48,233 nt of DNA from a bacterium (GTDB lineage Bacteria > Patescibacteriota > Minisyncoccia > Phycocordibacterales > UBA918). Position 1 is the stretch's first letter. Each line of letters opens with the position of its first letter. The stretch spans positions 92,790 through 141,022 of the forward strand of contig JAYSUD010000012.1 of NCBI GenBank assembly GCA_043719295.1, in the 5' to 3' direction. Both the position numbers and the translations under genes were made by a program. Positions 9,174 through 45,361 of the stretch are shown here, piece by piece. Under the pieces are notes generated by a model, which had not been told where the DNA came from, did no database searches, and worked only from the letters and a program-made list of their open reading frames with translations.

Positions 9174-9175
9174 AA

Positions 9176-14656: not shown

Positions 14657-14694
14657 ACATTCAGGTCCATGCCGGTATACTCGAATATAAGAAT

Positions 14695-28280: not shown

Positions 28281-29462
28281 TCACTTAAAATATATCCCCT
28301 TCTTGTTCAACATTTCTTCAAAAGACGGACTGAAACTTACTACTTCTTCTAGCGCATTGAATATTAAAGGACTTTGTTCCCGAGCTTTGTCCTGATTGAA
28401 TTGAAATCTAAATATAGTCTGAGAAAGAGCGTCGTATGGCAAGTTTTGATTTAAATGCTCTAGAGCCAAATTTATATGACTTTCTACAATAGTTTCGTAT
28501 ACTTCCTTGTTTATTCGATGTAGGTAGAGTGCACTATAGAAATGAATGGAGCTTTCATAGTTGGCAAATACATTATTTTCTTTATAACTTTCAGATTGAG
28601 AAATTTGCATTGCTTCGGCAAAAACAGTTTCGAAGTCTTGCTCAGTTGGTTTTGGCACTTTGGTTACAATATCTCCAAGCACCTTGCCCTTCCAGTATAA
28701 ATGTGTGACAAGCGCACTAGATTTAAGAGATATCGGGGTATTTATAGGATCTTTTATTCTTTCATCGGCGCTGGCTATGTATGTCTCAATTTTATTCTGA
28801 ATTTGAACATTAGAAAGTTGTTCTACGTTTGGTCTATATTTGTTTTCATTCAGTGTATCAGCATATACATTTGCTAAAAACATACTCGTGAATGGAATTG
28901 GTTCAAGACTTTCGGCAAATAGTGCCAACTTTTTCATCAGCTCATGCCGAGCAATTAAGTCACCATTTTTTGCAAGTTCTAATGTCTCTAAATATTTTTT
29001 ATCAAACGATATTATTGCTTGTGTCTGAATATAAAAAGGGAAATCTCCAGCATAAAATGAGGCAGGGTCAGTGTACGCATATCTAATAAGCATTGCTATG
29101 GCTGATGACCTACCCCAAGCTGGCACACTCTCATCATCAGCTACACCTCGCAACATATTTATGGCTTCTAAAGATGCTTCAGTAGTGTTTTTTTTATGCA
29201 ATGCACTTATATATGAAAAAGTAAGTGACAGATATTCAAGAGATTTTTTATTATTCATATTGTTTATAAGACTCTTTGCATTTTGTAAATCAGTATCTGC
29301 AGCGCTTGTAAGCAACACACTAGCTAGTTCAGGCCCATTTTTTGACTCTCTATTTATTTGTATCTCATTATTGCCATCATTTCTGGGGTAGAAAAAAAAT
29401 ATACACAGTGTAATACCCAGTGTCAGAAAAAAAAGAAGTAGTGGTAGTATTTTAATTTTCAT
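28281..29462 (-). CDS. Membrane-anchored all-alpha protein, unknown function; translationally coupled to the upstream Hint-repeat gene
   Basis: N-terminal TM helix (ILPLLLFFLTLGITLCIFFF). TAATG stop/start overlap at 29460-29464. Confidence 0.7.
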   Translation of the reverse strand: MKIKILPLLLFFLTLGITLCIFFFYPRNDGNNEIQINRESKNGPELASVLLTSAADTDLQNAKSLINNMNNKKSLEYLSLTFSYISALHKKNTTEASLEAINMLRGVADDESVPAWGRSSAIAMLIRYAYTDPASFYAGDFPFYIQTQAIISFDKKYLETLELAKNGDLIARHELMKKLALFAESLEPIPFTSMFLANVYADTLNENKYRPNVEQLSNVQIQNKIETYIASADERIKDPINTPISLKSSALVTHLYWKGKVLGDIVTKVPKPTEQDFETVFAEAMQISQSESYKENNVFANYESSIHFYSALYLHRINKEVYETIVESHINLALEHLNQNLPYDALSQTIFRFQFNQDKAREQSPLIFNALEEVVSFSPSFEEMLNKKGIYFK

Positions 29463-30304
29463 TACATTCCAAATTTATTATGTACAAGGATCCCGTTAAC
29501 AAAATAGTTAGCAGGGCCACTAGACATGTGTAAATTATATACTGTTGCTATTACTGAGGATTCAGTCAATACATCTCTACTTATAATCTTAATAGGTCCA
29601 GATTGTGTAAAAAGGCTATCGCCTATATTAAACTCCCCAATCGCCTTGTATGCACCCGAGACTACGTCATAGTAAGGATGGTTACTTGTAACACGCGTTA
29701 TACTCCCATCAGAGCACGTTAGTTCTACTAGCGGCATATTCACAAAATCATGAGGGTTTGTTTGTTCATCATGAATAATAACTTCACCAACGGTAGATGT
29801 TACAAATTCTTCTGACTCTTCATCATATGACCGAACCTTAGCCCCTACACATACACGCTCAATAGAAACACCCCCATCTTCAGTCAGGACTACCTCCCCC
29901 GCAGTAAAGCAGGAACCTCCACAACTACCCCCGGAGCCCCCTGAACTTGCATAACTGCTTTGGCTGTAGTACCCACTTTGAGAATATGACCTGTAACTGC
30001 TTTGGCTGTAGTACCCACTTTGAGAATATGACCTGTAGCTGCTTTGAGAATATGAACCATAGCTACTTTGGCTGTAGTACCCACTTTGAGAATATGAACC
30101 ATAGCTACTTTGTAGATATGGGGTATCAGCATGTGCTACTTGAAAGTTTGAAATGTTCTTTATAAAGCCCAATATCTGAAGTTTTGGATATTGCTCTTTA
30201 TTAAAAAGATCTAAGCCAAAAAATTTACAAGTAAAAACTACGATCGTCAACAAAAGGAAGAGCGCTATTTTAATTGGATTTAAAAAAGTATTCTTATGCG
30301 ACAT
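29462..30304 (-). CDS. Membrane-anchored YSQSSY/YSQSGY-repeat protein with Gly/Ser/Cys tract and C-terminal Hint domain (short paralogue of 26302-27984)
   Basis: TM helix at aa 11-31, repeats at aa 63-119, SSGGSGGSCGGS, then Hint Cys132 (CFTAGEVV), TSNHP, and VYNLHMSSGPANYFVNGILVHN-KFGM-stop. Confidence 0.85.
   Translation of the reverse strand: MSHKNTFLNPIKIALFLLLTIVVFTCKFFGLDLFNKEQYPKLQILGFIKNISNFQVAHADTPYLQSSYGSYSQSGYYSQSSYGSYSQSSYRSYSQSGYYSQSSYRSYSQSGYYSQSSYASSGGSGGSCGGSCFTAGEVVLTEDGGVSIERVCVGAKVRSYDEESEEFVTSTVGEVIIHDEQTNPHDFVNMPLVELTCSDGSITRVTSNHPYYDVVSGAYKAIGEFNIGDSLFTQSGPIKIISRDVLTESSVIATVYNLHMSSGPANYFVNGILVHNKFGM
29948..30118 (-). repeat. In-frame tandem coding repeats (YSQSSY / YSQSGY units)
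   Basis: Same nucleotide motif family as 26776-27651. Confidence 0.8.
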
Positions 30305-30401
30305 AATATATCAATATATTCTACAGTAAGTAGAACCTTAGTAAAGGCTATTGTTAACATTTGCTAAACTATACCTGACACAAACTGTGTATACTTCTTT
30401 A

Positions 30402-31829
30402 ATGGATGCAGAAGAGAATTCATATGTATTTGGAAAAGTAGTCGATCTTTACACATACATTTCTAAATCAAATCTCGGGGAGATTACAAAAGCAGGTGTA
30501 CTTTTCATTGTTAACATCCTAAATACGTACCTTCTGTTGCGTACCCAATTTGTAATTCAATATACAGAGGACTTTCGAGATGGTATAGACGTTGATTTAA
30601 AAGAAAAAATCAGGTTTCTTAAAGAAAAAAGAATTATTGATCAACTCATAATTCATTCCCATATATTTTCTGATGAACCATTTCAATTTAGTGCCACGGC
30701 AGTACCTAGTGGATATGGACATGACTTTTTTGATCAGCAAAAAACAATAAGAAAATCTTTGAGTGAAGCTGTTGAGCGCTACCTATGGGAAAATACAACA
30801 GCTCCGTATAAAAATAGACAAATATTTTCTTCTTATAATGAATTAAAGTATAAAAAACTAGATATTTTTTCACTACAAGGATTTACACAAGATCAAAAAA
30901 AAAGCACCATAAAGCTCCAATTTACTTCTGAAACTATTTTTTCATGGTTGCCTGGATTTTCTCTGACTGGTAATAAAACACTCTATTGCCCAACAAGTTT
31001 AGTTAGCTTAAATTATTTTAGATCAAGTGACGAACCAATGCTTCGTTGGAACATTACAACAGGTCAGGCAACCAGACCAAGCCTTGCTGAAGCGAAACTT
31101 CAAGCAATTCTTGAAATTATTGAGCGAGATGCTTTTATGATAAGTTATCTTAATAAACTAACCCCAAAAAAAATATCAATCTCACATTATTCTGATCTAG
31201 ATAAAGATATCGCTAGTATTTACGATGACTGCATGCGATATAATCTCGAGCTTCATTTATTGGCTCTACCTACTGATTTTCCTGTACACTGTATAATTGC
31301 TGTCATAATTGACAGATCGGGACTAGGACCAGCTCTCACTGTCGGTGCTTCGTGTAGTTTCGATATAGAAAATTGTATAAAACATGCTACATCTGAAGCT
31401 CTCTCTGTACGTTTTTACCTCAAAGATAAATTCCAAAAAGAACATTGCGGAAAAAATTTTGACAGACTTGAGCGATTAATCTACTGGAGTAAACCTGAAA
31501 ATATTGATAAACTTAATTTTTTTCTGGAAGGTACTGATACGATACAAGTTCCATTACTTGAATCTAAATTCAATATAGAAGAAAAGCTATGCATACTTAT
31601 ATCTGCATTTAGATCAAAAAAATATGAACTATGTTGTATTGATATGTCAGATAAAGAGCTGAAAAATGCTGGTTTTGAAAGTGTTTCAATTATCTCGCCA
31701 GAAATGCAACCTTTGCACCTCAATGAAGAAATTCCATACTTTGGTGGAAAAAGACTTAAAGAAGTGCCACTTATGTTTGGATATGATGCCGCAAGTATAA
31801 TTAATACAATACCTCATCCATTCCCATAA
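30402..31829 (+). CDS. YcaO-domain cyclodehydratase-like protein with about 130-aa N-terminal extension
   Basis: LSEAVERYLW and EAKLQAILEIIERDAF are YcaO ATP/Mg-binding glutamate motifs. The C-terminal IPHPFP-stop is the Pro-rich PxPxP tail of azoline-forming YcaOs. Start is ATG 30402 or TTG 30351. Confidence 0.85.
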   Translation: MDAEENSYVFGKVVDLYTYISKSNLGEITKAGVLFIVNILNTYLLLRTQFVIQYTEDFRDGIDVDLKEKIRFLKEKRIIDQLIIHSHIFSDEPFQFSATAVPSGYGHDFFDQQKTIRKSLSEAVERYLWENTTAPYKNRQIFSSYNELKYKKLDIFSLQGFTQDQKKSTIKLQFTSETIFSWLPGFSLTGNKTLYCPTSLVSLNYFRSSDEPMLRWNITTGQATRPSLAEAKLQAILEIIERDAFMISYLNKLTPKKISISHYSDLDKDIASIYDDCMRYNLELHLLALPTDFPVHCIIAVIIDRSGLGPALTVGASCSFDIENCIKHATSEALSVRFYLKDKFQKEHCGKNFDRLERLIYWSKPENIDKLNFFLEGTDTIQVPLLESKFNIEEKLCILISAFRSKKYELCCIDMSDKELKNAGFESVSIISPEMQPLHLNEEIPYFGGKRLKEVPLMFGYDAASIINTIPHPFP

Positions 31830-31831
31830 AT

Positions 31832-32578
31832 ATGTACAAATATTTTGCAAAAACTTTTCATAAGAAAATATTCAACCAATATCTAGACAGATTGCCAATT
31901 TTAGTGGATTCAAAAGTATGGCCAAAGGAGTGGTCAACGATTGATTATAAAGAATATCCACGCATGAAAAAAATAGAGCTCAAGCGAGCATCTTTTATAT
32001 TTCCACCATTAGACTCAATTCTCAAAATGCGACATACGACCAGAGAATTTCTAACACTACCAATTTCACTAGATAAAATTTCTTCTCTCCTTGAATATAG
32101 TGTTGGGTTAAATGTTACTCGAAATAAGAATTCAAACAATGAACGCCGATATTATCCTTCCGGTGGAGCACTTTATCCTCTTGAGGTTTATGTATACGTT
32201 CAATACTCAAAGGAAATAAGCGCTGGTCTATATCATTACAATGTAAAAAATCACTTGCTGGAAAATTTATTACCAAGTTCAGCAATTACTACTCTAAAAG
32301 AGAGCATCTATCCATGGGCAACAGATGCCCCAGTGACATTTTTTATTTCAAGTATTTGGAATAGAAATTTTAAAAAATATGACGACTACGGGTATCCAAT
32401 CGTACTTCTAGAAGCTGGGCATATTGGGCAAAATATGCAGCTTGTAGGTGAGGCGTTAGGACTGCGCTACTGTACATATGTTGGATTTAATATGAAAAAA
32501 ATTAATAATCTATTTAACTTTGAAAAAGCTGATGAAGAATGTGTACTCTATGTAGCTTCTTTCGGAGAAAGCAAATGA
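31832..32578 (+). CDS. SagB-type (nitroreductase-fold, FMN) dehydrogenase
   Basis: RRYYPSGGALYPLEVYV and LEAGHIGQNMQL are typical of SagB/ThcOx azoline oxidases. Begins 2 nt after the YcaO stop. Confidence 0.8.
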   Translation: MYKYFAKTFHKKIFNQYLDRLPILVDSKVWPKEWSTIDYKEYPRMKKIELKRASFIFPPLDSILKMRHTTREFLTLPISLDKISSLLEYSVGLNVTRNKNSNNERRYYPSGGALYPLEVYVYVQYSKEISAGLYHYNVKNHLLENLLPSSAITTLKESIYPWATDAPVTFFISSIWNRNFKKYDDYGYPIVLLEAGHIGQNMQLVGEALGLRYCTYVGFNMKKINNLFNFEKADEECVLYVASFGESK

Positions 32579-33326: not shown

Positions 33327-33725
33327 TTATTCCACAACAGTAACAGTCCCAACCTTATTAGCTCTAATATGGTCATGAAATTTCCAAACGCCTACTTTAT
33401 CAAACTTAAATTTCCAAATGTCTCCAGAAGCAATTGGCTTTAATGGATCAAATTCTGGATAAATGCCATGGGTTGGATGTAGGTCAGATGCTGGCCAATG
33501 GAATTCCCCACTTTCATTTGTCCATAGAACTACGTCACCCTTTTTAACGGTTACTTCTTTTGGTTCATAGCCATTTTCAGTGCGCACAATAGTAACGGTC
33601 GTTTCCTCAAGTATTTCTGTAGCTCCCACAATGCTTTTAATTTCAGTATCTTTTGTTAAGAAAAGGTAGCTACCTCCAACTACCGCTAAGACGATAACTA
33701 CAACAATCAAATTTTTTGTATTCAT
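33327..33725 (-). CDS. Membrane-anchored stand-alone cupredoxin-like domain lacking the type-1 Cu cysteine
   Basis: ...YEPKEVTVKKGDVVLWTNESGEFHWPASDLHPTHGIYPEFDP...WKFKFDKVGVWKFHDHIRANKVGTVTVVE. The strand pattern is cupredoxin-like but has FHDH where CxxH...M is expected. Confidence 0.7.
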   Translation of the reverse strand: MNTKNLIVVVIVLAVVGGSYLFLTKDTEIKSIVGATEILEETTVTIVRTENGYEPKEVTVKKGDVVLWTNESGEFHWPASDLHPTHGIYPEFDPLKPIASGDIWKFKFDKVGVWKFHDHIRANKVGTVTVVE

Positions 33726-33726
33726 A

Positions 33727-34245
33727 TTATTTTTTAACTTTTTTAGGTACTAAGAATCCAATACACAGCCCAATACACAAACTTCCAAAACTAAATAATG
33801 CATATAGTGGAATCGGATTAACTTCTTTTTCAACATCAAGAGGCGCAATTATTTCGAGTGGAAATTCTGATTTTATCACTGTTTCGCCGTCTTTTTGAAA
33901 GCGAGTTGCAATGGTATACACCCCCTCTTCTGGAAACACAAACGTGAAGCCAGTTGCACCAAACACCGGTTTATCAACTGCACCTCCAAAAAAGAGTTTT
34001 TTATCTTTTGTGATGGTGACCCATGCATCAGTAAATACCTCACCTTCAACTTTAGACACATCCTCAGGGTACAATGCAAAATCAAATCGAGTTGATTCTA
34101 ACGCTGCAATAAATTCATCGTGTCCAATATCAATTTTATATCCCTCTTTTACTTCTTCAAACGAGACTCCAGTACCGTGAGCATACACAGAAATTGCACC
34201 AGTTACAAAGATTACTCCAAAAATTAATACTGCCAAATACCTCAT
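33727..34245 (-). CDS. Secreted beta-rich protein with predicted N-terminal His after signal cleavage and C-terminal TM anchor
   Basis: Signal peptide ...GAISVYA followed by HGTGVSFEE. C-terminal LYALFSFGSLCIGLCIGFLV-PKKVKK. Confidence 0.65.
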   Translation of the reverse strand: MRYLAVLIFGVIFVTGAISVYAHGTGVSFEEVKEGYKIDIGHDEFIAALESTRFDFALYPEDVSKVEGEVFTDAWVTITKDKKLFFGGAVDKPVFGATGFTFVFPEEGVYTIATRFQKDGETVIKSEFPLEIIAPLDVEKEVNPIPLYALFSFGSLCIGLCIGFLVPKKVKK

Positions 34246-34270
34246 ATTTTAAAAGTATACCATGTACGTT

Positions 34271-35488
34271 TTATTCTCCATTACATTCTTGTTTAAACTT
34301 TGCAGGAAGTAACGAGCAGAGTTTTTCAAACGGTTCTGAACCAGGATGAAAATTAAACGAGGCTACATTTGCAAGAAAGCTATAACACTCGTCTTGTGCG
34401 GATCCTGTATTTGCCCGAGCACACATTGCAATTCCCTCCTCTACAAGATTTTGATCTTCTTCAGGATATGCATTTGCACCTCGGGAGAAACAGTTACCTT
34501 TATAGGTTTCAGGTAGCCCATTGCAGGTAGTTGCCATCTTCTCTGGATTTTCTAAATTGTGACGTCCATTAATTGTAAACGCTGAAACATAACACAAGTC
34601 TCTACTTTGTGAGGCTGAGAGTACTGAACAGTAAGAAGTAATACCTTCACTTGTGTACACATCAGCACCAAAAAATGGCCATGCTTCTCTCCAACAAGCA
34701 CCATACTGTGCATCATTTTGTGAACTTTTTGTACAGAACTCTTCAAGATTCTCCCGTGAGGGTTTTAGGTGTAACATATCAACGAGTGCATAGTCTTCGG
34801 GTTCAAGTGGTTGAAAGAGTTGCATGTACACCCCTTCTGTACAAAGCTGACGATAATCTCTCCCATCTTCTTTTTTACCAATTACTTCACAAGCCTGTAC
34901 TGATTCGGCTACTTCTGCCAGCGTCATGTGTATGAGCACATGACCAATACCGTGATAACAGATTGCCTTCGTTAAGTCAGTTGGGTCAAAACCCTCACGC
35001 GTTTCACAGGCTATCGATAAATCAGTTAACGCAGAATCAAATTCTTCTTTTGATAAGTCTTCATCGTTAAAACGGGTAACGATCGCTCCGTGTGCGAAAC
35101 CGTTTGAGCAAAGACCATCAGTCGGACCTTTTGCTATCACATCAAGCCACTTATTTGGGTCTAAAGAGACTTCATATCTTCCAAGTTCGTGTGCGAGCAC
35201 ATGGCAATACAAATACTTTGGATCTTCTCTTCTGATTTCACGGACGACATTAAAAATTTCTTCAGTTGGCAACTCTCGTACTAATTTGGGAACCTCTGTC
35301 TCATAACAAGTTGGTTTATACTCACTATCCTTACAAGCTTCAATCATCAAACTAGCAAACTCTTTGATACTTTTCTGTGGAGAAGATTTTGTTGTTTGTA
35401 CATAGACATATGTGCCCACAGTTAAAATCAAAAATACAGCAGCACTTAGAATCAGAATTGTATTTTTTTTCTTCATACGTAATTTCAT
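34271..35488 (-). CDS. Membrane-anchored Cys/His-rich domain protein (paralogue family, no cupredoxin domain)
   Basis: Motifs YCHVLAHELG, LCSNGFAHG and ICYHGIGHV, followed by recurrent xC(Y/F)xxG units. Confidence 0.7.
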   Translation of the reverse strand: MKLRMKKKNTILILSAAVFLILTVGTYVYVQTTKSSPQKSIKEFASLMIEACKDSEYKPTCYETEVPKLVRELPTEEIFNVVREIRREDPKYLYCHVLAHELGRYEVSLDPNKWLDVIAKGPTDGLCSNGFAHGAIVTRFNDEDLSKEEFDSALTDLSIACETREGFDPTDLTKAICYHGIGHVLIHMTLAEVAESVQACEVIGKKEDGRDYRQLCTEGVYMQLFQPLEPEDYALVDMLHLKPSRENLEEFCTKSSQNDAQYGACWREAWPFFGADVYTSEGITSYCSVLSASQSRDLCYVSAFTINGRHNLENPEKMATTCNGLPETYKGNCFSRGANAYPEEDQNLVEEGIAMCARANTGSAQDECYSFLANVASFNFHPGSEPFEKLCSLLPAKFKQECNGE

Positions 35489-35490
35489 TA

Positions 35491-36987
35491 TTATTTTGGA
35501 CAGTACAATTGCCTATACTCTTCTGGAACTTGAGCGCAAATCATTTGTGTGTCTTGTAAGGTATACCTTCCACTCATTCGAGGAAGAGTGTATTTATAAC
35601 AGCTATTTCGTTCTTCTTTAGTTAATATACCATTTGCACAAAAGGTGAGGTTCTCTACATATTCTACTCCAGGTTTACCGTACTTAATGTGTCCACCTGA
35701 AAGCCCTTCAATACAAGCTAATCTATCTTCTCCCTGAGTCCTACAAAATTCAATTCCCTTTTCTTGATACCCTTCTGTTTGTCCATACATACGAATATAT
35801 TCAAACATAATACCTAGTGTAGTGAGCTCATCAACAGTATGTCCATCAATTGCAATGACGTCACCATCAATCATATTTTTATTTACGTATTGTGTAATTT
35901 TATCAAAATCATCATTGTACAGCTTAAAGACAATCGGCATCATGTTTGCGTAACATCCTTCTCGTCTGTGTACCGGTTGTTTGTTACACATAAGAAATGG
36001 ATCTTTTTGTAACTCTTGGATTTGATATTTTGGGTCTGCTGAGAGTATTTCAATAGCATTAAAAACACCTGTGTCACAGAGATACGTTTCAAGCTCATTT
36101 TTTGCCAGCTGTGCGCAAATTTTAAATCCTGGTTCCATCATTGCTTCGACGTCCCCCCACTGTGTTGGGTCACTTCCATCGATAGCACCATGGCCCGTAC
36201 CATGATAACAAGCTGTTGCTGCTTGCGACGCTTGTCCACTTAATTTTTGATCTACAAGTTCACAAAATGCACGAGCTTCAGCAATGTCTCCTGTTGCCAG
36301 CAACATTGTTTCCATAAAACCGTGATAAAAGCCATATCCACAAAGTGCAGTAGCCGGCGTTAACTCAAAATTCTCTTGTGCAACATACTGTGCATACGCT
36401 TTTTCTCCAATAAGGTGAGATTGGCCGTGACAGTCGTTAGCAAACGCTGGCTCTGTCTCCGACAGCTCAACAATTTTATCAAACGACGCTTTTACACCTT
36501 CAACTTTGAGTGTTTCCAGAATAAGTTTTTCCCAACATTGTTGATTTTTTTCAACCGTACAGTCGGTTACGACTTTCGTTCCGTCTTTCTTTAATACCGT
36601 TATTTCACCTTCAAAAGTAGAGTTGATATGATCGTGGAATTTGTAACTTCCAGCTTTAGTAAAGGTAAATGACCATTTTTCATCAGCTGAAAGTGGCTTA
36701 CGCGGATCAAAATCAGGAAAACTTGAATGTGTTGGATGCACGTTTGATGCTGGCCAAAATGCTTCACCTGTTTTTGAACTAAAAGTTACCGTATCACCTT
36801 CATAAATTGTCAAGTTTGGAGGCGTAAAACCATTTTCGGTAAAAACAATAGTTTGTAGGGCAGTATTAAATGAAGTCTGAAATAAAAAAAATCCGTATAC
36901 AACAAAGATGATAAGACCTACGACAGCAATGCCATACGCCTGCGCATACTTGCATAAGTTTTGTACAACAAAATTCATACTATGCAC
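35491..36987 (-). CDS. Membrane-anchored Cys-less cupredoxin-like domain fused to Cys/His-rich domain
   Basis: EAFWPASNVHPTHSSFPDFDP...WSFTFTKAGSYKFHDH, then DCHGQSHLIG, LCGYGFYHG and ACYHGTGHG. Confidence 0.75.
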   Translation of the reverse strand: MHSMNFVVQNLCKYAQAYGIAVVGLIIFVVYGFFLFQTSFNTALQTIVFTENGFTPPNLTIYEGDTVTFSSKTGEAFWPASNVHPTHSSFPDFDPRKPLSADEKWSFTFTKAGSYKFHDHINSTFEGEITVLKKDGTKVVTDCTVEKNQQCWEKLILETLKVEGVKASFDKIVELSETEPAFANDCHGQSHLIGEKAYAQYVAQENFELTPATALCGYGFYHGFMETMLLATGDIAEARAFCELVDQKLSGQASQAATACYHGTGHGAIDGSDPTQWGDVEAMMEPGFKICAQLAKNELETYLCDTGVFNAIEILSADPKYQIQELQKDPFLMCNKQPVHRREGCYANMMPIVFKLYNDDFDKITQYVNKNMIDGDVIAIDGHTVDELTTLGIMFEYIRMYGQTEGYQEKGIEFCRTQGEDRLACIEGLSGGHIKYGKPGVEYVENLTFCANGILTKEERNSCYKYTLPRMSGRYTLQDTQMICAQVPEEYRQLYCPK

Positions 36988-37082
36988 CCAGTATACTATA
37001 CTGATAGAATACTCGATTCACTAAGTGTATAGTGAACTTTATTTTTTAGTTATTGTACTCGTCTAAAACTCTATATAGCTTT

Positions 37083-38240
37083 ATGATCTCAAAAAACATA
37101 CTCTTGATAATAGTGTTGAGTATTCTATTCAGCATTACTCTTGTCTATGTATTCAAGCAGAATGCTTCTTTTAATGAACCAGCTCGGCCTATTTCATATA
37201 TAAAAGAAGAATATTTACGTTGTATCACATTACCCACAGATTCAGAAAAAGGTGAGTGTTTGAATGTGCTTGCCGAATATGCATATGATATGTATGGTCC
37301 TGAAATTATTTCAGAAGAGCTTGATACTCTCACAATGCAAGATCGAAATTTATGGTGCCATGAGACAATGCATTACGTTGGATGGCAGGCATACCAGCAT
37401 GAACAATCTGTTGCCAAAGCATTCATGCAGGCAACTGAACTTTGTGACAGCGCTATGTACCATGGGATTATGGAAGAGTATTTAAGACAAAACGGTCTAG
37501 AGGAAAATATAGAAAGTTTAATTAAAACTGTCTGTACTGACGCTCTTGCTGAACGTCCTGATTTCTCAGAAGGGACTCGTTCACTTTGTTACCACGGAAT
37601 TGGTCACGGACTAATGTACATCACTACTTCCAATTTAGGTCGTTCACTAGATTATTGTGATGTTTTACAAGATGGTGAGAGACAGAGTTGTTATGGTGGT
37701 GCGTTTATGGAACATACCGCGAGCAAACAAGTTGGGCCAACTAGAAACAATAAAGACTTACGGGATTTTAGTTATTGCGAATCACTTAAAGAACACCAGA
37801 AGATTGATTGTTATGTGCGACAAGGTTCAAACAATTTTTCATTCACCGGTGGAGAAGTGAAGCCGGCAATGGAACTATGTCTTGAGCTTGAAGCGCAGTA
37901 TCAAAAAGTCTGTTTTGAAGGAGTAGGTATCAATAACCCCACGCCGTCGAAATCACATACACAAGCAAGTATTGATTGTCATGAAGCGCTTGAAGTGTCA
38001 CCTGCTTCCTATCAATCATGTATTAAAGGTAGCTTAGGTTTTGTCATACAACTTGATCGTGGTGAATCTCAAGGTGCTTATGATTTTTGTAAAGCAACTC
38101 TTGGTGAGTATCAAAATTATTGTTATACACAAATGGGTCAAAACCTTAAGAATTGGCTTTCACAAGGAGAAACACTTGAAACTAAGTGTAGCGTCATTGA
38201 AGACAAAAAGTTTCAGGAATTTTGTGGCATTAAAAATTAG
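37083..38240 (+). CDS. Membrane-anchored Cys/His-rich domain protein (paralogue family)
   Basis: WCHETMHYVG, LCDSAMYHG and LCYHGIGHG. Start set at ATG 37083; the ORF track starts at TTG 37053. Confidence 0.7.
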   Translation: MISKNILLIIVLSILFSITLVYVFKQNASFNEPARPISYIKEEYLRCITLPTDSEKGECLNVLAEYAYDMYGPEIISEELDTLTMQDRNLWCHETMHYVGWQAYQHEQSVAKAFMQATELCDSAMYHGIMEEYLRQNGLEENIESLIKTVCTDALAERPDFSEGTRSLCYHGIGHGLMYITTSNLGRSLDYCDVLQDGERQSCYGGAFMEHTASKQVGPTRNNKDLRDFSYCESLKEHQKIDCYVRQGSNNFSFTGGEVKPAMELCLELEAQYQKVCFEGVGINNPTPSKSHTQASIDCHEALEVSPASYQSCIKGSLGFVIQLDRGESQGAYDFCKATLGEYQNYCYTQMGQNLKNWLSQGETLETKCSVIEDKKFQEFCGIKN

Positions 38241-38284
38241 TTAATCTAAAAGTAAGTACGGTCATTGTGCTATGATAAAAAATA

Positions 38285-39202
38285 ATGTTTCATAGATCTG
38301 ACATCATAATGCTCCCAATAGTGTTAGTAATATTTACTTCCATATATCTAGTTGCAAACTCTGCAGCACTGTCTAAATTTGAGCCCTCAGTTAACAGTAG
38401 CGAAAAAATTAATACCGCTACAGAAGAGCAACAAGCTTATTCTGCATCAACAAAAGAACTTATGGAAAGCGCAGAAGCTTTTTTTACAAAAGGAGAATAT
38501 CAAAAAACTATAAATATTTACAAGGAGATCATCTCTCGCGAACCCTCAAACGTTGAAGCACATCAGCAAATTGCCCATACTTATAGATATTGGTATAAAC
38601 ATGAAGAATCTGAAATCTGGTTTAAAAAAGCTATTGCGCTGAACCCCAGTAACGCATTTTTATATACAGACATTGGCAAGCTGTACAGAAACATGAACGA
38701 ACCAGAAAAAGCTGAGGCTGTTTTCAAAAAAGCTATCGAACTTAACCCAAACGATGATTCTGTATACAGCTATGGACTTGGATATTTGTATTTCGACCAA
38801 AAGAGATACGAAGACTCTGAGGCCATGTTTTTAAAAGCGCTTGAAATAAATCCAGAAAGTGATTTGGGAAATAGTGGACTAGCAGATCTTTATAGAGAAA
38901 TGGGAAGATATGAAGAATCAGAAGCAATGTACAAAAAAGTCTTCGAAATTAACCCTAACAGTGAAGCATATCTTGGACTCGGTTGGTTATACATCTACCA
39001 AGGAAAATATGAGGAAGCATTAGTTCCACTGCAGGCTTTTCTCACGAAAATTCGGGAGAAAGGTGAAGTGTATTATACTTTGGGACAAGCTTACTCAAAA
39101 CTTGGGCGTAACGATGAAGCAAAAAATGCTTTTAAGAGGGCTGTGGAGCTGGTCCCTGATAACCCTCTTTTTATTGAGGCATATACACAAGCACAACTTT
39201 AA
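38285..39202 (+). CDS. Membrane-anchored TPR repeat protein
   Basis: Repeated A..FKKAIELNP / FLKALEINP / YKKVFEINP units. Confidence 0.8.
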   Translation: MFHRSDIIMLPIVLVIFTSIYLVANSAALSKFEPSVNSSEKINTATEEQQAYSASTKELMESAEAFFTKGEYQKTINIYKEIISREPSNVEAHQQIAHTYRYWYKHEESEIWFKKAIALNPSNAFLYTDIGKLYRNMNEPEKAEAVFKKAIELNPNDDSVYSYGLGYLYFDQKRYEDSEAMFLKALEINPESDLGNSGLADLYREMGRYEESEAMYKKVFEINPNSEAYLGLGWLYIYQGKYEEALVPLQAFLTKIREKGEVYYTLGQAYSKLGRNDEAKNAFKRAVELVPDNPLFIEAYTQAQL

Positions 39203-39240
39203 AAAAGTTTGCATACAATGTAATTTAGATTTTTGGATAT

Positions 39241-40686
39241 TCACTGCAGAAGTGTCGTGCACTCCTGTATATGAGGATGATAGATTTTAGGTATTGTGTT
39301 ACACACTTCAACTATTTTTTTCGGTGGATACACTGATTGCGCATGCGACACAACTTCTTGGAAGCATTTAATTTCTTCTTCGGTTTGTATCCAGGCACTT
39401 GAACAAAATAGAACTGCTTTTTGGTATTCAATTCCTGGGATGCCATTGTTATAGAGCTTATTAATCACCGCAGAAATACAAGGTAAACGAAGGCTATCAT
39501 TTTGTACTCCACAACTTTCTACAAAATTTCCTATTTCTTCAATAGGTGCCTCTGCTTGGACAAATAGTATGGCGGCGTGAAAAAAAATATCAGAGAATAG
39601 GTACGGTGGTGTGCTTTTTTGGATTATTGATACTGTGCGTGTAAGATCAAAATCTGTACTTGCGGGTAGTGCAGCAATAAGTGTAACAAAACAGTCTTTT
39701 TGATATATTTTTACTTGCTCTGCACAAAGTATGATTGAATCATCATCGAAGGCAAACCCATAAAGTTCATTTAGCATATAGTCCGTCATTGCATGAAAGA
39801 CTCCCGTCATACAACGCTCTCTGTAGAGTGGATTACCCTGCACTGTTTCACAAAAAGCTACAGCAGGATCAACAAGTAACTGAAACTCTCCCCAGAGATG
39901 AGGAGGTGGAGGATCAGGGATGAGACCGATGCCGATACCATGGTAACAATTCATACGATTATCATCCTGCAGCGCATCTGTTTTACCATTTAATGATGCG
40001 CAAAATTCCTTTGCAGCTTCAATACCACTATGCGCTTGCATTGCTGTAGTAAAGCCATGCCAAAAACCATTCCCACAGGATACAGTTTCTTGTCCAAGGT
40101 CTACTAGACTGCTTTCAAGATGAGCGGTGTACGCATTTTTTCCTAAATCGTGTGCAAATGTATGACAGCTTCGCTGGTAGCTATTCGAAAGATCGTTGAA
40201 TAATTCCCGAGCTTGATCGTATGGTAATTCACTTGATACATTCCTGAAGTAGATTTCCATACACGATGCCTGTTCGAGTGAATCTGAAAGTATAGTGCAT
40301 GTAGTCTGGTCTGTAACTTTTGAAATATCGTTTGAACCTGAAACGACAATTCCATTCATTTCTGGAGCATAATGGTCATGAAAAGTATATGTACCCTTTT
40401 TTAAAAAAGTGAATACCCACGTATGTAATGGAGCAATTCCTTTAAGAGAATCAAAATCTGAATAAGTAATATGGCTAGGATGCGGGCCTGCTGCAGGCCA
40501 TATAGGGCGAAGGGTTAAATTAATAAATCTAAGAGATTCATTTTCATCAACTTGTACCACTTTTGGAAAAAAGCCTGAAGGAAGTCGTAATATGACATGC
40601 TGCTCTATATCATTTTGCACATACCAAAATATAAGAGCAATAAAGACACAGAAAATTATCAGAATAAACCAACCTAATCTTTTCAT
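39241..40686 (-). CDS. Membrane-anchored Cys-less cupredoxin-like domain fused to Cys/His-rich domain (divergent copy)
   Basis: IWPAAGPHPSHITYSDFD...WVFTFLKKGTYTFHDH, then SCHTFAHDLG, SCGNGFWHG and NCYHGIGIG. Confidence 0.7.
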   Translation of the reverse strand: MKRLGWFILIIFCVFIALIFWYVQNDIEQHVILRLPSGFFPKVVQVDENESLRFINLTLRPIWPAAGPHPSHITYSDFDSLKGIAPLHTWVFTFLKKGTYTFHDHYAPEMNGIVVSGSNDISKVTDQTTCTILSDSLEQASCMEIYFRNVSSELPYDQARELFNDLSNSYQRSCHTFAHDLGKNAYTAHLESSLVDLGQETVSCGNGFWHGFTTAMQAHSGIEAAKEFCASLNGKTDALQDDNRMNCYHGIGIGLIPDPPPPHLWGEFQLLVDPAVAFCETVQGNPLYRERCMTGVFHAMTDYMLNELYGFAFDDDSIILCAEQVKIYQKDCFVTLIAALPASTDFDLTRTVSIIQKSTPPYLFSDIFFHAAILFVQAEAPIEEIGNFVESCGVQNDSLRLPCISAVINKLYNNGIPGIEYQKAVLFCSSAWIQTEEEIKCFQEVVSHAQSVYPPKKIVEVCNTIPKIYHPHIQECTTLLQ

Positions 40687-40823
40687 ATATACCCTATACT
40701 ACAACATTGTTCTGACTTGAACTGGAAAATTAGCAACACGTAAACATTCATAAATGGAGATTGTACCTAAAAGTGAAAATATCGATGTAGAGATGCAAGT
40801 ACTTTAAATATTAATTTAAGATA

Positions 40824-42308
40824 TTAATATTTATCGCATGTCGGTATCTTTTGAATAGCCTGGATGTACTCACATGATTTTTTCATTTGTTCAAGTGTAT
40901 AGACGTTTTCAAGATGTTCGGTGTACTTTTCACGGCAATTACTTTGCTGCATTTGTGTAAGACCATTTTCGCCACAAAAAGCATATCCCTTTTCGTGTAA
41001 ATTGAGTGGATTACCGTGCTGGATAAAACCATTTAAAATACCTCCAAAGCATGATTCGTATAAATGCTCTGGAACAAGGTCGCATGCAACGATGCTGTCA
41101 GAGTGATCATTAGATACAATTGTGGTTTGTATGTGATCTGCTGAAATTTTTGACACTAATTTTGCTCCACTAACATCAAGATTTTGTATGTTTTTTAAAG
41201 CATAATCCATAATAGTTACTACATCATCACCAAATACGGCAGCAGCAATCCCGATAAACTCAAAATAACAAGATTTTTTATAAACATCGGGCTGTCTCTG
41301 ACAATATAAAAATAAATCTAATTTTTTAAACTCCTCAAAATTTAGACCATACTGACTTTGGAGTAATACTTGTTGGGATTCATTAAATACACCGTCATAA
41401 CAATTCTCAAGATCGCTACTGTCACTAAATAACTTCTCACAGATATCTATTCCTTCATTCATCACTTTTTCAATCTGCCCATAATTTTCAGGTTCCTCTA
41501 TAAGCATTGACGTAGCGCCATGCCCAACTCCGTGAATGCAATTATCGTGAATCGAGGGCAACGCTGTACCTAATTTTTCCACAACATACCTACAAAATGA
41601 TTTGGTTTCTGTAATATCACCTGTCTGCCTGATAAGTTCTGCAATGAACCCGTGGAAGAAACCATATCCACAATAGGATGCTTCAGGACGCAAACCTGGA
41701 TCTTCACCTTTACTGTAAAGTTCATAACCTGCCTTACCTAAGATATGTCCCCACCCATGGCAGTTTTTAGGAACTTCAGGCTCGGTATTATATAGCTCAA
41801 CAAAATATTTAAACGCAGCATCAATCCCTTGCGTTTCTAACTCTTGTTTAAGTTGTTCATCCCAACACTGCTGTTTTTGAGATAAATCTGTAACTGAAAC
41901 GCATGCGTGTATATCACTCACAAAATCAATACTTTGACCGACTCCGGTTACAATAATCTTGCCTGTAAAATTTGCAAAAATATGATCATGAAAAGAATAT
42001 CTCCCTGCCTTTGAAAAAGTGAATGACCAGGTATCACTAGAGGCTATTGGCTTTTTGGGATCAAACTCTGGATAAAGAGTGTGGTCAGGATGAATGTTTG
42101 AAGCAGGCCAAAATGATTCACTCTGATCTGTGCTAAACACCACAGTTTCACCTTCCTTTATTTGCAAGACTGATGGGCTGAAACCTGTTTTAGTTAAAAC
42201 TATATGATTTTTGCCATTATTTCCAAATACAATCGAGGAAATAATCCAAGCTATACATAATCCTAATAATAAGAGGATCCCTAAAATAATAACTAACCTT
42301 CTAGGCAT
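40824..42308 (-). CDS. Membrane-anchored Cys-less cupredoxin-like domain fused to Cys/His-rich domain
   Basis: SFWPASNIHPDHTLYPEFDP...WSFTFSKAGRYSFHDH, then NCHGWGHILG, YCGYGFFHG and NCIHGVGHG. TAATG overlap with the upstream paralogue at 42306-42310. Confidence 0.75.
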   Translation of the reverse strand: MPRRLVIILGILLLLGLCIAWIISSIVFGNNGKNHIVLTKTGFSPSVLQIKEGETVVFSTDQSESFWPASNIHPDHTLYPEFDPKKPIASSDTWSFTFSKAGRYSFHDHIFANFTGKIIVTGVGQSIDFVSDIHACVSVTDLSQKQQCWDEQLKQELETQGIDAAFKYFVELYNTEPEVPKNCHGWGHILGKAGYELYSKGEDPGLRPEASYCGYGFFHGFIAELIRQTGDITETKSFCRYVVEKLGTALPSIHDNCIHGVGHGATSMLIEEPENYGQIEKVMNEGIDICEKLFSDSSDLENCYDGVFNESQQVLLQSQYGLNFEEFKKLDLFLYCQRQPDVYKKSCYFEFIGIAAAVFGDDVVTIMDYALKNIQNLDVSGAKLVSKISADHIQTTIVSNDHSDSIVACDLVPEHLYESCFGGILNGFIQHGNPLNLHEKGYAFCGENGLTQMQQSNCREKYTEHLENVYTLEQMKKSCEYIQAIQKIPTCDKY

Positions 42309-43567
42309 TATAAAAGAATTATATTACATTCTTTTAAATATTTCTCTGGAACAGACAAACAAATATTTTCTCTCACTTTTATATCTTGTTGATAGTACTT
42401 TGTAATATCAAACAAATGAGTAAAACATGCGCTTTTAGGTTCTCCGTCTTTGAGTAACGTACAATAGCGTACTGATACTTCAGGATCATTTTCTCCCCCC
42501 CAATACAGTGAATCAAGTATTGAAACAAGACAAGCAATTTGAGCTTCTTCTTTTTCTGCAAGCATACACCACGATGCTGATTTCTCGAGGAGTTCGTTTG
42601 GTGTATCTTCGATCTTTCTAATATCTCTGTCCTGAGAAAGTACAATAAACTCTTTCCCAAGACCTCCATAACAAGATCGGCGCTGATTTTCATCTTCTAC
42701 TACATCACAATAGCTAAAGCTTTTTTTATAAATATCGGGAGTTGGGTTACTGCCATCACTCGCTCCTGCAGCAGAGAATATATAAGGAGTAATATACGAA
42801 TAACAAAGTACCTTTGCTTCTTCGGGCATATAGTCACTTTGGCAAATACGTAACGGGTCATCTTTGCGTAAGTATTTGTCTTTCTTTTTTTCCCAAATCT
42901 CAGGATCGTGTACTCCTTGGAACATTTCCATCACCATTCCGCCAATACACTGCGAAGACTCTTCATTTCCGTAGGCTTGTGTCCCTACTTTCTGACAAAG
43001 CTTCACTGCCTCAGGAATTTCATATTCTGCAAATGCTAACACTCCATGTCCAAATCCATGAAAACACATCGTGTACGCACCAGGCCCTCCTGGTGCATTT
43101 TTGCAAACAGCATTTACCCTATCAAATACTGAGAGGCCTTCAGCAAGCAATGCTCCAACAACAATTGAGTGCGAGCATGCGTTGCGGAAATCGTGAGTAC
43201 AAAACTGCATTCCCTCTAAGCCCTCTTGTTTATAGAGTTCGTCTCCTACCGCATGCCCAAGAAGGTGTAGGTCAGTATTAGGTGGCAATACCGCACGTTT
43301 GAGTATTTCAAACGCATACAAACCGCCATCTTTTTTTGCCAAATCAACGAAGAATGCTCGTACCCCAATAAAGGTTTGTTCTACATCAGAAAGTTCTTCT
43401 AGAGTTACATTAAAATTTGCTTCAGTGAAACTTTTTTGCTGGTTGTCTTTCTCAGTTTTGAAATCGATAAACCCCATCTGTACTGCAGTATACAGACTTA
43501 TTCCAAGAACAAGCATCCCAACAATACCAATTCCAATTGTTCGTATTATTTTAAAAGACAACATCAA
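42308..43567 (-). CDS. Membrane-anchored Cys/His-rich domain protein (paralogue family)
   Basis: LHLLGHAVG, ACSHSIVVG and MCFHGFGHG, followed by xC(Y/I)xG units. Confidence 0.7.
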   Translation of the reverse strand: MMLSFKIIRTIGIGIVGMLVLGISLYTAVQMGFIDFKTEKDNQQKSFTEANFNVTLEELSDVEQTFIGVRAFFVDLAKKDGGLYAFEILKRAVLPPNTDLHLLGHAVGDELYKQEGLEGMQFCTHDFRNACSHSIVVGALLAEGLSVFDRVNAVCKNAPGGPGAYTMCFHGFGHGVLAFAEYEIPEAVKLCQKVGTQAYGNEESSQCIGGMVMEMFQGVHDPEIWEKKKDKYLRKDDPLRICQSDYMPEEAKVLCYSYITPYIFSAAGASDGSNPTPDIYKKSFSYCDVVEDENQRRSCYGGLGKEFIVLSQDRDIRKIEDTPNELLEKSASWCMLAEKEEAQIACLVSILDSLYWGGENDPEVSVRYCTLLKDGEPKSACFTHLFDITKYYQQDIKVRENICLSVPEKYLKECNIILL

Positions 43568-43627: not shown

Positions 43628-43891
43628 TTATGCTACTTTCTTGATAGAGGCACTTAATCGTGACTTTTTCCGGGCTGCAGTGTTCTCTTTGATAACTCCT
43701 CGTTTTGCTGCTTTATCAATTGCTTTATATGCTCCTGGAAGCATCTTTTGTGCCTCATCTTTGTTTCCTGCTTCAACCATCTTTCGCAGTTTCTTCACAG
43801 TGTCGTTCATTGCAGTCTTACGACGGATGTTAAAAACATGCTTTTTAAGTGATGCTCGGTGTGCTTTATGTGCTCCTTTAGTAATTGGCAT
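43628..43891 (-). CDS. rpsT: 30S ribosomal protein S20
   Basis: 87 aa and basic. AHKAHRASLKKHVFNIRRKTAMNDTVKK...AYKAIDKAAKRGVIKENTAARKKSRL. Confidence 0.9.
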   Translation of the reverse strand: MPITKGAHKAHRASLKKHVFNIRRKTAMNDTVKKLRKMVEAGNKDEAQKMLPGAYKAIDKAAKRGVIKENTAARKKSRLSASIKKVA

Positions 43892-43960: not shown

Positions 43961-44479
43961 CTAAGTCTCTTGGATTCTTGGGAGTACTTTTACCGTTACA
44001 GAATCAGAACCTCCAGTACAGGTTATTGTATATGTCTCTTGTCCGGTTAGAGTATCTGTACGACTTCCGCCTACTGAACCAATTGGTGGAGTGACTGGAT
44101 TAGGAGCACCTGTAAGTGAAATCAAGTTCGTGCTAAGAAGACAATCTGTATAACCGTTTGGATTCCACGTTATTACAACGTCATCACCGTAACGGACAAG
44201 GGGCTTATCGACAGTAATAATTGGCAATGCACCAGGAGGGCACCCTGTGTTCGGATGTGGAGGAATTGCACTACACCCACTGGCTGGCATTGCAAACCCA
44301 CCTTGCTCCCCTCTGGGAGAAGTCTCAGATAAACCAAGCTCAACAGATTCAACAATATTAATTTCTGGAGCTGGGTTTAGCTGTTCTGGTTGCGTACCTA
44401 AACCAAGTAGCGATGACACAAAAAGTAACGCCGGGGCAATGCTATTAAATATATTTTCCATACCACTATTATCACACAT
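43961..44479 (-). CDS. Secreted/membrane-anchored hypothetical protein (Ig-like C-terminal part)
   Basis: N-terminal hydrophobic helix (IAPALLFVSSLLGLG). Alternative start at 44461. Confidence 0.55.
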   Translation of the reverse strand: MCDNSGMENIFNSIAPALLFVSSLLGLGTQPEQLNPAPEINIVESVELGLSETSPRGEQGGFAMPASGCSAIPPHPNTGCPPGALPIITVDKPLVRYGDDVVITWNPNGYTDCLLSTNLISLTGAPNPVTPPIGSVGGSRTDTLTGQETYTITCTGGSDSVTVKVLPRIQET

Positions 44480-44524: not shown

Positions 44525-45361
44525 TTATTCTGTCAGAGCACGATTCTTTGCAATCATACTCTTAAATTCCTCCAACCCTTTCTCCCATATTTCAGGGTTA
44601 TTACCGGGGTACGATTTCCCCCAGTCTGTCACCGTCAGTTTCTCAGCCATTTCCTGTGCAAATATAAAGTACTCTCGTGCAAGATCTGTATCACCAGTAT
44701 TAAAAAGTGCGAGACCATACATATTAAGTAACCATGGATTATTAGAATCAACAGATAATCCTTTTTCAAGCACCGGTTTCATCTCCCCGAATTTGCCTTG
44801 TGAGAAATATATCCAGGCTAAGTCGACATACGCCCATGGAGCTTTGTTAAAAAACTCTACCGCTTTTATGAAATTATCTTCGGCTTGTTTCCAGTCTTGA
44901 GGATCATTAGTCAAGCGTGCTTTATAGCCATAGGTAAGGCCAATCATGTAGTATACATTTGGAACCTCGTCACCAAAGTACTCAATTTGTGTTGCAAACT
45001 TTTCTAGTGCTCTATCAAAATTTCCATTGATAAAATCAATTCTTCCTGATTGATACCATACCAACTTGTTTCCTCTTGGATTTAAAGCTATAGCTTCTTC
45101 ATAATACTGTTGTGCTTTTACAATATCGTATACACCACCTTCCTCATCATCGCTGTTGAAGTAATACTCCCCTTTTTCGAAGGCTGTTTTGCTCTCTAGT
45201 TCAAACGGTATTTCTTCAGTTGCTCTAGTAGCTACAGACTCATGTTGCTTTTGAGTAAAAAGATAGTATCCAAAACTTACAAAAAGACAGATTCCAAGAA
45301 AAATAGCTGCTCCAATTTTTAAAAACATATAGCAAAAGTATACCTTATGCAAATTGCTCAT
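44525..45361 (-). CDS. Membrane-anchored TPR repeat protein
   Basis: TM helix followed by TPR-like units (AQQYYEEAIALNP, ...). Confidence 0.7.
   Translation of the reverse strand: MSNLHKVYFCYMFLKIGAAIFLGICLFVSFGYYLFTQKQHESVATRATEEIPFELESKTAFEKGEYYFNSDDEEGGVYDIVKAQQYYEEAIALNPRGNKLVWYQSGRIDFINGNFDRALEKFATQIEYFGDEVPNVYYMIGLTYGYKARLTNDPQDWKQAEDNFIKAVEFFNKAPWAYVDLAWIYFSQGKFGEMKPVLEKGLSVDSNNPWLLNMYGLALFNTGDTDLAREYFIFAQEMAEKLTVTDWGKSYPGNNPEIWEKGLEEFKSMIAKNRALTE

Follow-up and report, generated by a model that had tools for sequence, protein, structure and literature searches.

The Sel1-like proteins HcpB and HcpC of Helicobacter are secreted alpha/alpha solenoids with one disulfide per repeat, and belong to families with several paralogues in a genome. 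Copper proteins offer other points of comparison: in the type-3 class (hemocyanin, tyrosinase), the His ligands sit on packed alpha-helices in an HxxxH...H pattern, and in the multicopper oxidases (MCOs) an H-C-H triplet marks domain 3 and a W-Y-H-S-H motif marks domain 1. YcnI (DUF1775), in which Cu(II) is held by the N-terminal His27 together with Glu50 and Trp137, has a C-terminal helix as its tether (PMC8424229). We report here on a gene cluster located at positions 33327-43567 of a 48,233-nucleotide stretch of the genome of an ultra-small patescibacterium (the window). It consists of nine open reading frames (ORFs), designated A to I by position, each with an N-terminal hydrophobic segment; six of the products share a domain that we call S, and three of these six, as well as a fourth protein, carry a cupredoxin-like domain that we call U.

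The Patescibacteria (candidate phyla radiation, CPR) account for a large part of the diversity of bacteria; their genomes measure about 1 Mb or less, and most of their surface proteome lacks annotation. An earlier note on this DNA, made from its letters, had described the S paralogues as carriers of an unrecognised Cys/His-rich domain and had proposed metal or redox chemistry for them. Our main finding is that S represents a new domain family; its general class, the disulfide-stapled alpha-repeat, is already known from Sel1/Hcp proteins, and its sequence, five-His centre, fusion partner and restriction to one lineage are without known counterpart elsewhere. Metal, copper or redox chemistry is a plausible function for the cluster as judged from its sequence motifs. 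The reading that we prefer, with a rough probability of 0.45, is that the cluster encodes an extracytoplasmic multi-subunit metalloprotein system, which would capture or relay a metal (copper is the likeliest) or employ it in redox reactions at the cell surface.

The S domain: family, repeats and histidines

S is about 350 amino acids long and is common to proteins C, D, E, G, H and I. BLASTP links D to H (1e-90), D to G (2e-53), G to H (2e-52) and C to I (5e-12), more weakly C to E (6e-10), E to H (1e-8), E to I (3e-7) and C to H (about 1e-7), and a few pairs through intermediates only. The six copies are 19-33% identical to each other, and their alignment contains 20 invariant columns, every one of them Cys, His or Gly. 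The array and its shared motifs are real, beyond chance, and the motifs quoted in the earlier note are found verbatim in the translations.

No match to S was obtained in Pfam and NCBIfam, whether the query was one of the six paralogues, one of eight multi-domain relatives, one of 90 family members taken singly or the family consensus, and a profile search of PDB sequences gave no meaningful match either. As full-length D returned cupredoxin matches only in Foldseek, an AlphaFold2 model was built for the S domain of D alone; it is all-alpha, with 19 helices, a predicted local distance difference test score (pLDDT) of 94.4 and a predicted TM-score (pTM) of 0.91. Nothing significant was found with this model, either in the PDB (best E=0.07, query TM-score at most 0.28) or in BFVD (best E=0.14, query TM-score at most 0.31), the top matches being mostly generic TPR, HEAT, ARM, PPR or Sel1 solenoids. 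Full-text literature searches, which included the motif strings and CPR cupredoxins, revealed no description of the family. The earlier note had been unable to assign the domain to any described family, and these searches lead to the same result.

The note had also proposed a profile search from the six copies. Run against 1.84 billion representatives, with clusters at 50% identity, it uncovered a very large family, of 6717 clusters at E<=1e-3, with 5116 remaining at E<=1e-10 and 1001 at E<=1e-30, again with no Pfam match. Public names of its members are 'hypothetical protein', 'cupredoxin domain-containing protein' or 'plastocyanin'. Informative organism names are all patescibacterial (Yanofsky-, Sung-, Kaiser-, Nomura-, Doudna- and Colwellbacteria, Spechtbacterales, Paceibacterota, Minisyncoccia); a few contigs carry the labels Gammaproteobacteria, Saccharibacteria or Verrucomicrobiia, which were given by automated pipelines for metagenome-assembled genomes and are unconfirmed. 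S occurs alone in 305 family members, after U in 288 and as a tandem in 21, with up to seven copies in one protein of 3580 amino acids (P0121). Other fusion partners are rare, namely TPR domains and, in one case, an alpha/beta-hydrolase (P0250, Abhydrolase_2, E=9e-9).

The internal organization of S emerges from an alignment of 555 domains, which was split into six segments that were compared by hhalign. The four C-terminal segments match each other with probabilities of 77-97% (E 2e-5 to 4e-10), and the segment bearing the third His motif matches the next one with 83%. When each unit is anchored on its second Cys, sequence and predicted secondary structure come into register: helix A ends in a Cys, the second Cys lies 10-13 residues further on, about six residues inside helix B, and precedes an aromatic residue and Gly. 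Given the hhalign self-matches and this common register, as well as the all-alpha model, the 'Cys-marked alpha-repeat' of the earlier note is a correct description.

The number of Cys is even in 509 of 556 S domains (92%), with a mode of 16 (380 domains), and amounts to 16 or 18 after the membrane anchor in all six proteins of the window, which contain no CxxC motifs. Moreover, Cys tend to disappear two at a time, with phi coefficients for co-loss of 0.93 for positions 368-381, 0.60 for 484-496, 0.57 for 151-186 and 0.49 for 186-216 (positions in S and U are numbered after D throughout). At five of the related loci described below, DsbA-like thioredoxin genes stand beside the arrays (Thioredoxin_4, E=1.6e-29), and a DsbA/VKOR system has been reported to be widespread in CPR bacteria (bioRxiv 10.1101/335083). 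Even counts, paired loss and DsbA-like neighbors are most simply explained if the Cys of S form structural disulfides, as the note had anticipated, rather than serving as metal ligands.

How far S resembles described solenoids can now be specified. Like S, Sel1/Hcp proteins are extracytoplasmic alpha/alpha repeats stapled by disulfides (predicted for S from its Cys pattern), with several paralogues per genome. Unlike S, they have another repeat length and another Cys spacing; no Sel1 profile was matched at E<=1-10 by the six paralogues, the 90 family members or the consensus, and the Sel1 matches in BFVD reach only E 0.36 or worse, with TM-scores of about 0.14-0.21. Hcp proteins are not known to have a five-His centre, a transmembrane anchor or a cupredoxin fusion. 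TPR, HEAT and ARM proteins share with S the stacked helix hairpins, and provide its best non-significant Foldseek matches (LGN, PP2A-A and importins, E 0.07-0.5), but the TM-scores are 0.2-0.28, no sequence match exists, and these folds have neither disulfide stapling nor invariant His motifs. Against the TPR profile, S scores at noise level (E 0.04-5), whereas protein F is a true TPR protein.

Although the 555 domains are otherwise about 20-40% identical, the columns conserved at 80% or more consist of Cys, Gly and five His, and nothing else. The His are close to invariant: H187 is present in 99.6% of domains, H191 in 98.9%, H222 in 99.6%, H262 in 98.9% and H266 in 98.4%. They lie in the B helices of three consecutive repeats, at offsets of +1/+5, +6 and +2/+6 from the anchor Cys, and these equivalent offsets would place all five at the same height and on the same helical face. 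Mean-field direct coupling analysis (DCA) of the 555 domains (effective number of sequences, 537) couples positions 186-216 (rank 24), 217-259 (rank 11), 195-227, 198-231, 225-263 and 194-263; as these pairs connect helices of the three repeats, the His-bearing helices probably pack parallel and in register. Two pairs of His are coupled directly (191-262, rank 34; 191-266, rank 29).

The pattern of loss points in the same direction. One or more of the five His is absent in only 15 of the 555 domains, and two or more are lost in four, for 0.41 expected under independence; H191, H262 and H266 are lost jointly in three unrelated family members. H266 is replaced by Ile in protein G of the window and in four relatives elsewhere, all of which keep the other four His. 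The earlier note had set store by the conserved His, and by conservation, covariation and joint loss they do behave as one set. We conclude that the five probably form one functional centre, in which the sequences hint at two sub-sites, H187/H222 and H191/H262/H266. The His are bordered by Gly (G194, G217/G219/G223 and G263/G265/G267), which leave space around them. A metal site would be the most economical reading of this centre; that it binds some metal has, in our estimation, slightly better than even odds, and that the metal is copper is a tentative proposal that we consider rather doubtful.

Known metal sites and enzymes on helical scaffolds were also compared. The spacings H187-x3-H191-x30-H222 and H262-x3-H266 recall type-3 copper proteins, a resemblance of pattern alone: these have six His in a four-helix bundle, against five in S, and no Pfam or Foldseek match to them was found. 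Hemerythrin and other di-iron proteins, P1 nuclease, LanC-like proteins, alpha/alpha-toroid lyases and zincins (HExxH) were rejected together with the type-3 class, as the similarity is limited to motifs, profile and fold support is missing, and the required Asp or Glu is absent. Copper storage as in Csp was rejected as well, since the Cys of S are even in number, lost in pairs and located at helix ends, and are not unpaired core thiolates.

Partners of S and gene order in other genomes

Three lines of evidence identify U as a cupredoxin-like domain in A, D, G and H, where the earlier note had placed it. With Pfam Cupredoxin_1 (PF13473, gathering threshold 27 bits), D (29.6) and H (28.4) score above the threshold and A (21.5) and G (20.8) below it; the family consensus reaches 39 bits, and at E<=1 a match is seen for 80 of 90 members. 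When a profile was built from the four copies, of which A and D match each other in BLASTP at 2.5e-32, it retrieved amicyanin (E=3e-6) and plastocyanins (about 1e-4). Finally, the AlphaFold2 model of full-length D (pLDDT 92.6, pTM 0.86) matches plastocyanin and amicyanin in Foldseek (E 5e-5 to 1e-3, target TM-score 0.65-0.79).

U thus shares with type-1 cupredoxins such as amicyanin and plastocyanin the Greek-key beta-sandwich and a significant profile similarity, but not the His-Cys-His-Met ligand set. Amicyanin Cys92 corresponds to Asp119, neither His nor Met stands where amicyanin has His95 and Met98, and 293 of 304 non-identical U domains contain no Cys. Without this ligand set, and mostly without Cys, U makes the public label 'plastocyanin' functionally misleading; it represents a known fold in a new variant, rich in His and lacking Cys. 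Residues conserved in 97-100% of the 304 domains are W78-P-A-S81, H84-P85, H87, F93-D94 and H118-D119-H120, which suggests a type-2-like site of four His, with Asp as a possible addition. H84 and H87 are carried by a loop, residues 84-86 of which are the sole segment of the D model with pLDDT below 50.

U resembles the type-2/type-3 His sites of MCOs and NirK in having H-x-H on the strand that in MCOs bears H-C-H or W-Y-H-S-H, with a further His pair about 31-36 residues upstream. Since D119 aligns with amicyanin Cys92, U appears to present H-D-H in place of the MCO triplet. Similarity to Cu-oxidase_3 is weak: matches were seen in 13 of 90 family members, the best of them (E=6.6e-5) below threshold, and the family consensus aligns over the YHDH region with E=0.033; no significant homology of U to MCOs was detected. 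These enzymes share HxH-ligated T2/T3 copper between two or more cupredoxin domains and also have a type-1 site. U, by contrast, comprises one cupredoxin domain with one HxH and no type-1 copper, and its partner is a helical solenoid.

Protein B is the third component. Its signal peptide is predicted to be cleaved between VYA and HGTG, which makes His (H23) the first residue of the mature protein; a beta-rich ectodomain of about 120 residues follows, then a C-terminal transmembrane segment (hydrophobic residues 144-168, then KKVKK). H23 is invariant in 87 of 87 clusters and comes after an AxA-type signal-peptidase site, with A, G or S at -1 in 86 of the 87 and a small or aliphatic residue at -3. 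Other conserved residues in these clusters are E30 (99%), D39 (100%), D55 (98%), D73 (99%), W75 (100%) and R115 (100%). Neither the window protein nor its relatives or their consensus has a Pfam match, and NCBIfam likewise yielded none for B; the B profile retrieved from PDB sequences only weak matches to filamin Ig repeats (E=0.0018) and did not find YcnI, and hhalign revealed no relationship of B with U or S.

In its general build, B is nevertheless similar to YcnI: both have a signal peptide cleaved before His, a conserved Glu and Trp, a beta-rich ectodomain and a C-terminal transmembrane segment. They differ in the distance between His and Glu, 7 residues in B against 23 in YcnI, and in sequence, where no match is found; E30 and W75 are candidate counterparts of Glu50 and Trp137 in a His/Glu/Trp mono-histidine brace, and no more than candidates. 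B is an analogue of the N-terminal-His copper proteins without detectable homology to them, and by this analogy it is a reasonable hypothesis that it works like YcnI. Of its 25 occurrences in other genomes, 13 are beside a stand-alone U gene and 14 beside an S gene. At one locus (L058), a gene about 1 kb downstream of B, at 13438-16191 (+), encodes a CopC-CopD-like protein of 917 amino acids (CopC, E=6.7e-16) that likewise has an N-terminal His after its signal peptide.

Related loci were gathered by scanning genomes with the D-family alignment. This yielded 73 loci from other genomes, with 385 S ORFs, 154 U ORFs and 25 B genes, in arrays of 2 to 16 genes; in the longest (L057, 21 kb), 16 S or U-S genes follow one another without interruption on the same contig. 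The genes of a 666-kb contig (L001) are arranged as H-I-(S+TPR fusion)-D-C-B-A and share a single strand; identity to the window protein is 43% for H, 46% for I, 50% for D, 50.5% for C, 33% for B and 48% for A. The fusion (8153-9955 (+), 600 amino acids) joins an S domain, residues about 34-341, to a TPR part, residues 352-596, that is 56% identical to F, and constitutes a Rosetta-stone link between S and its TPR partner. Its S half holds the position of E without being specifically E-like (24% identity to E, 26% to I). I-, C-, H- and D-type genes and further copies are present on a Yanofskybacteria contig (L002), and the H orthologues of L001 and L002 are 43-46% identical to H of the window. 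Counted by locus, orthologues of C type are found 55 times, I type 50, D type 39, H type 11 and E type 6.

The earlier note had seen in the array a local expansion of paralogues undergoing diversification. This view does not hold, as each paralogue has its own orthologues in many Patescibacteria, often in the same gene order. Orthologues reach 60-68% identity across genomes, well above the values between paralogues within the window, so that the duplications must be ancient and the copies have been kept as distinct subunits. That they persist in fixed order, and that S can be fused to TPR, suggests a single assembly with non-redundant subunits and not a set of copies in the course of diversification.

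Layout and surroundings of the cluster

The coordinates of the cluster are given in Table 1. Six Cys/His paralogues with one N-terminal hydrophobic anchor each are present where the earlier note had located them, the TPR protein stands amid the array as described, and the TAATG coupling, in which the stop of I overlaps the start of H, can be read directly in the sequence. The inventory of the note was correct for the eight genes that it listed, and incomplete in that it overlooked B, which is part of the conserved cluster. The genes form three strings: I-H-G, with 137 nucleotides between H and G; E-F on the opposite strand, E being divergent from D; and D-C-B-A, with gaps of 2, 25 and 1 nucleotides. 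A scan of the cluster for promoters and terminators found sites no more numerous than in shuffled sequence.

Table 1. Genes and domains of the S cluster, in window coordinates
Feature	Position	Strand	Description
A	33327-33725	-	132 amino acids; stand-alone membrane-anchored U protein, no Cys; motifs WPAS, HPxH, HDH
B	33727-34245	-	172 amino acids; signal peptide, ectodomain and C-terminal transmembrane segment; between C and A
C	34271-35488	-	405 amino acids; transmembrane anchor and S; 18 Cys after the transmembrane segment
D	35491-36987	-	498 amino acids; transmembrane anchor, U and S
S domain of D	35494-36585	-	Residues 135-498; predicted disulfide-stapled alpha-repeat, 16 Cys
Three His-motif helices of D	36187-36432	-	Residues 186-267; CHxxxHxxG, CGYGFYHG, CYHGxGHG
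U domain of D	36583-36867	-	Residues 41-135
E	37053-38240	+	395 amino acids (385 from an internal ATG); transmembrane segment and S; 18 Cys after the transmembrane segment
F	38285-39202	+	305 amino acids; transmembrane-anchored TPR protein (TPR_1, E=5.5e-44)
G	39241-40686	-	481 amino acids; transmembrane anchor, U and S; H266-to-Ile variant
H	40824-42308	-	494 amino acids; transmembrane anchor, U and S
I	42308-43567	-	419 amino acids; transmembrane anchor and S; 16 Cys; lacks C186

Past rpsT (43628-43891), a secreted protein of 172 amino acids without family match (43961-44479 (-)) and a second membrane-anchored TPR protein of 278 amino acids (44525-45361 (-)) are encoded, and these two genes may or may not belong to the cluster. 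Directly upstream of the cluster, 30351-32578 (+) encodes a YcaO cyclodehydratase (PF02624, E=1.3e-45) followed by a nitroreductase/SagB-like protein (PF00881, E=2.7e-20), a pair typical of the maturation of ribosomally synthesized and post-translationally modified peptides of the thiazole/oxazole-modified microcin type. This pair was rejected as a functional partner since it is not conserved beside the arrays at other loci.

Further upstream, C-terminal pretoxin-HINT domains of the polymorphic-toxin type are encoded at 26302-27984 (-) and 29462-30304 (-), close to a gene for a WD40/PD40-like protein (25075-26292). Positions 1891-25011 form a defence/mobile island, with a T5orf172 protein (1891-2499), a type I restriction-modification system (HsdR 2573-5782, HsdS 5788-7089, HsdM 7092-9173), a serine recombinase (9462-10784), an N6/N4 DNA methylase (12107-13432), a DUF6119 protein (14695-16488), an archaeo-eukaryotic-type primase-helicase of the TOTE system (18832-20961) and a Fic protein (20973-22025).

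At the other loci, three kinds of genes recur beside the arrays, all without Pfam match: a transmembrane-anchored beta domain of about 178 amino acids with two conserved Cys, in 25 loci, Gly/Tyr-rich 'YGQGYY' surface proteins, in 27 loci, and a pair of membrane proteins of 158 and 327 amino acids, in 10-12 loci. Examples of such recurrent neighbors are at L008, 3381-3911, L040, 2777-3544, and L038, 7648-9095.

Proposed metalloprotein system and rival surface functions

The metalloprotein reading that we prefer can be put together as follows. S would be an alpha-solenoid of about eight helix-loop-helix repeats, each of them stapled by a disulfide from the end of helix A to the start of helix B, and the ectodomains would be oxidised to about eight disulfides per domain. 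The B helices of repeats 1-3 would supply H187/H191, H222 and H262/H266 to one metal centre; U would add a second, type-2-like, His-rich metal site composed of HPxH and H-D-H; and B, with its N-terminal His after cleavage, would be a metal-handling partner comparable to YcnI. The paralogues, the TPR protein, A and B may then assemble outside the cell into a membrane-anchored hetero-oligomeric complex, which would either take up or pass on a metal ion, copper being the likeliest, or employ it in redox chemistry at the surface. In its strongest form, this proposal makes the five-His centre of S, U and B a copper relay or oxidoreductase specific to Patescibacteria, with a cofactor architecture unlike that of known cuproproteins. 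We consider this form improbable; if true, CPR bacteria would have an important envelope function that has gone unnoticed, with an unmatched cofactor architecture.

A number of observations weigh against a metalloprotein system. The clustering of the His, the connectivity of the disulfides and the interface between U and S are deduced from sequence, from the logic of the repeats and from modest covariation. S has no conserved acidic or Met ligands, and five His correspond to no known canonical site. Proteins with S only are as common as those fused to U, which shows that U is not obligatory. No similarity of B to either DUF1775 or CopC was detected, and a CopC-containing gene lies near the arrays at just 1 of the 73 loci, L058. 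In addition, many CPR bacteria live by anaerobic fermentation, and few cuproenzymes are known from them. Finally, mean-field DCA between the two domains, performed on 263 U-S proteins, gave weak and scattered signals, the best pairs of which (82-232 and 90-231) involve the distal end of helix B2 and not the His motifs.

It is conceivable that S is a disulfide-stabilised scaffold or adhesin that binds no metal, used by these episymbionts to bind proteins or host surfaces, with the His patch as a ligand-binding or pH-sensing site. The only structural neighbors of S, which are interaction scaffolds of the TPR, HEAT, ARM and Sel1 types, fit this idea, and so do its fusion to, or proximity with, TPR proteins. 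Giant proteins with up to seven S domains and arrays of up to 16 genes are typical of surface proteins, and the other recurrent neighbors of the arrays are of surface type as well. Yet the binding surfaces of adhesins usually vary, whereas here the five His, the flanking Gly and the Cys are conserved at 98-100% over more than 500 domains, and the paralogues are ancient orthogroups, not fast-diversifying copies. A consistent fusion to a His-rich cupredoxin fold would also be left unexplained. For these reasons we regard a metal-free scaffold as rather unlikely.

The confinement of conservation to a few His and Gly is, on the other hand, what is seen in active sites, and S might be an extracytoplasmic enzyme (lyase, hydrolase or oxidase) acting on polymers of the envelope or of the host, the His serving in a groove of the solenoid, either for acid/base catalysis or to hold a catalytic metal. 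In favor of this, an alpha/beta-hydrolase is joined to S in one family member, and protein E contains an exact HExxHxxG string (CHETMHYVG). The Glu of this string is not conserved, however, the family consensus being CHGLAHEIG, and no Asp, Glu, Tyr, Asn or Arg is conserved alongside the His; by Foldseek, S is structurally unlike alpha/alpha-toroid lyases, glycosidases and zincins. We judge such an enzyme unlikely.

A more elaborate possibility is that the four His of U and the five of S meet between the domains in a multinuclear cluster of the T2/T3 kind, or form an electron-transfer couple, in a new surface oxidoreductase. The location of HDH at the position of the H-C-H triplet and the weak similarity to Cu-oxidase_3 speak for it, and the pTM of the two-domain model suggests a defined interface. 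An insert of 8-10 residues directly after the third His motif, moreover, is present in 261 of 268 U-fused S domains against 99 of 287 unfused ones, an odds ratio of 71 that ignores kinship. The interdomain covariation reported above points to the far end of helix B2, however, S-only proteins keep all five His without U, and there is no type-1 site to supply electrons. Because the covariation is so weak and directed away from the His, we retain a shared cluster as a case of low probability.

A function based on the Cys themselves, as free thiols that store Cu(I) in the manner of Csp or in thiol-disulfide exchange, might be suggested by the presence of 16-18 Cys in an all-helical domain, but is highly improbable given their even number and paired loss, their location at the ends of helices, with a spacing of 10-13 residues that spans a turn, rather than in i/i+3/i+4 core ladders, the lack of CxxC motifs, and an extracytoplasmic location with DsbA-like neighbors.

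The metalloprotein system remains the reading that we favor. A single genome can devote 10-20 kb to the S family, and the definition of the domain by its repeats, its putative disulfides, its five-His signature and its partners U, B and TPR offers something concrete with which to test an envelope function that is apparently confined to these episymbionts. Should the His centre bind copper, it would represent a new ligand architecture for bioinorganic chemistry, and extracellular metal chemistry would have to be attributed to organisms that are thought to be metabolically minimal.

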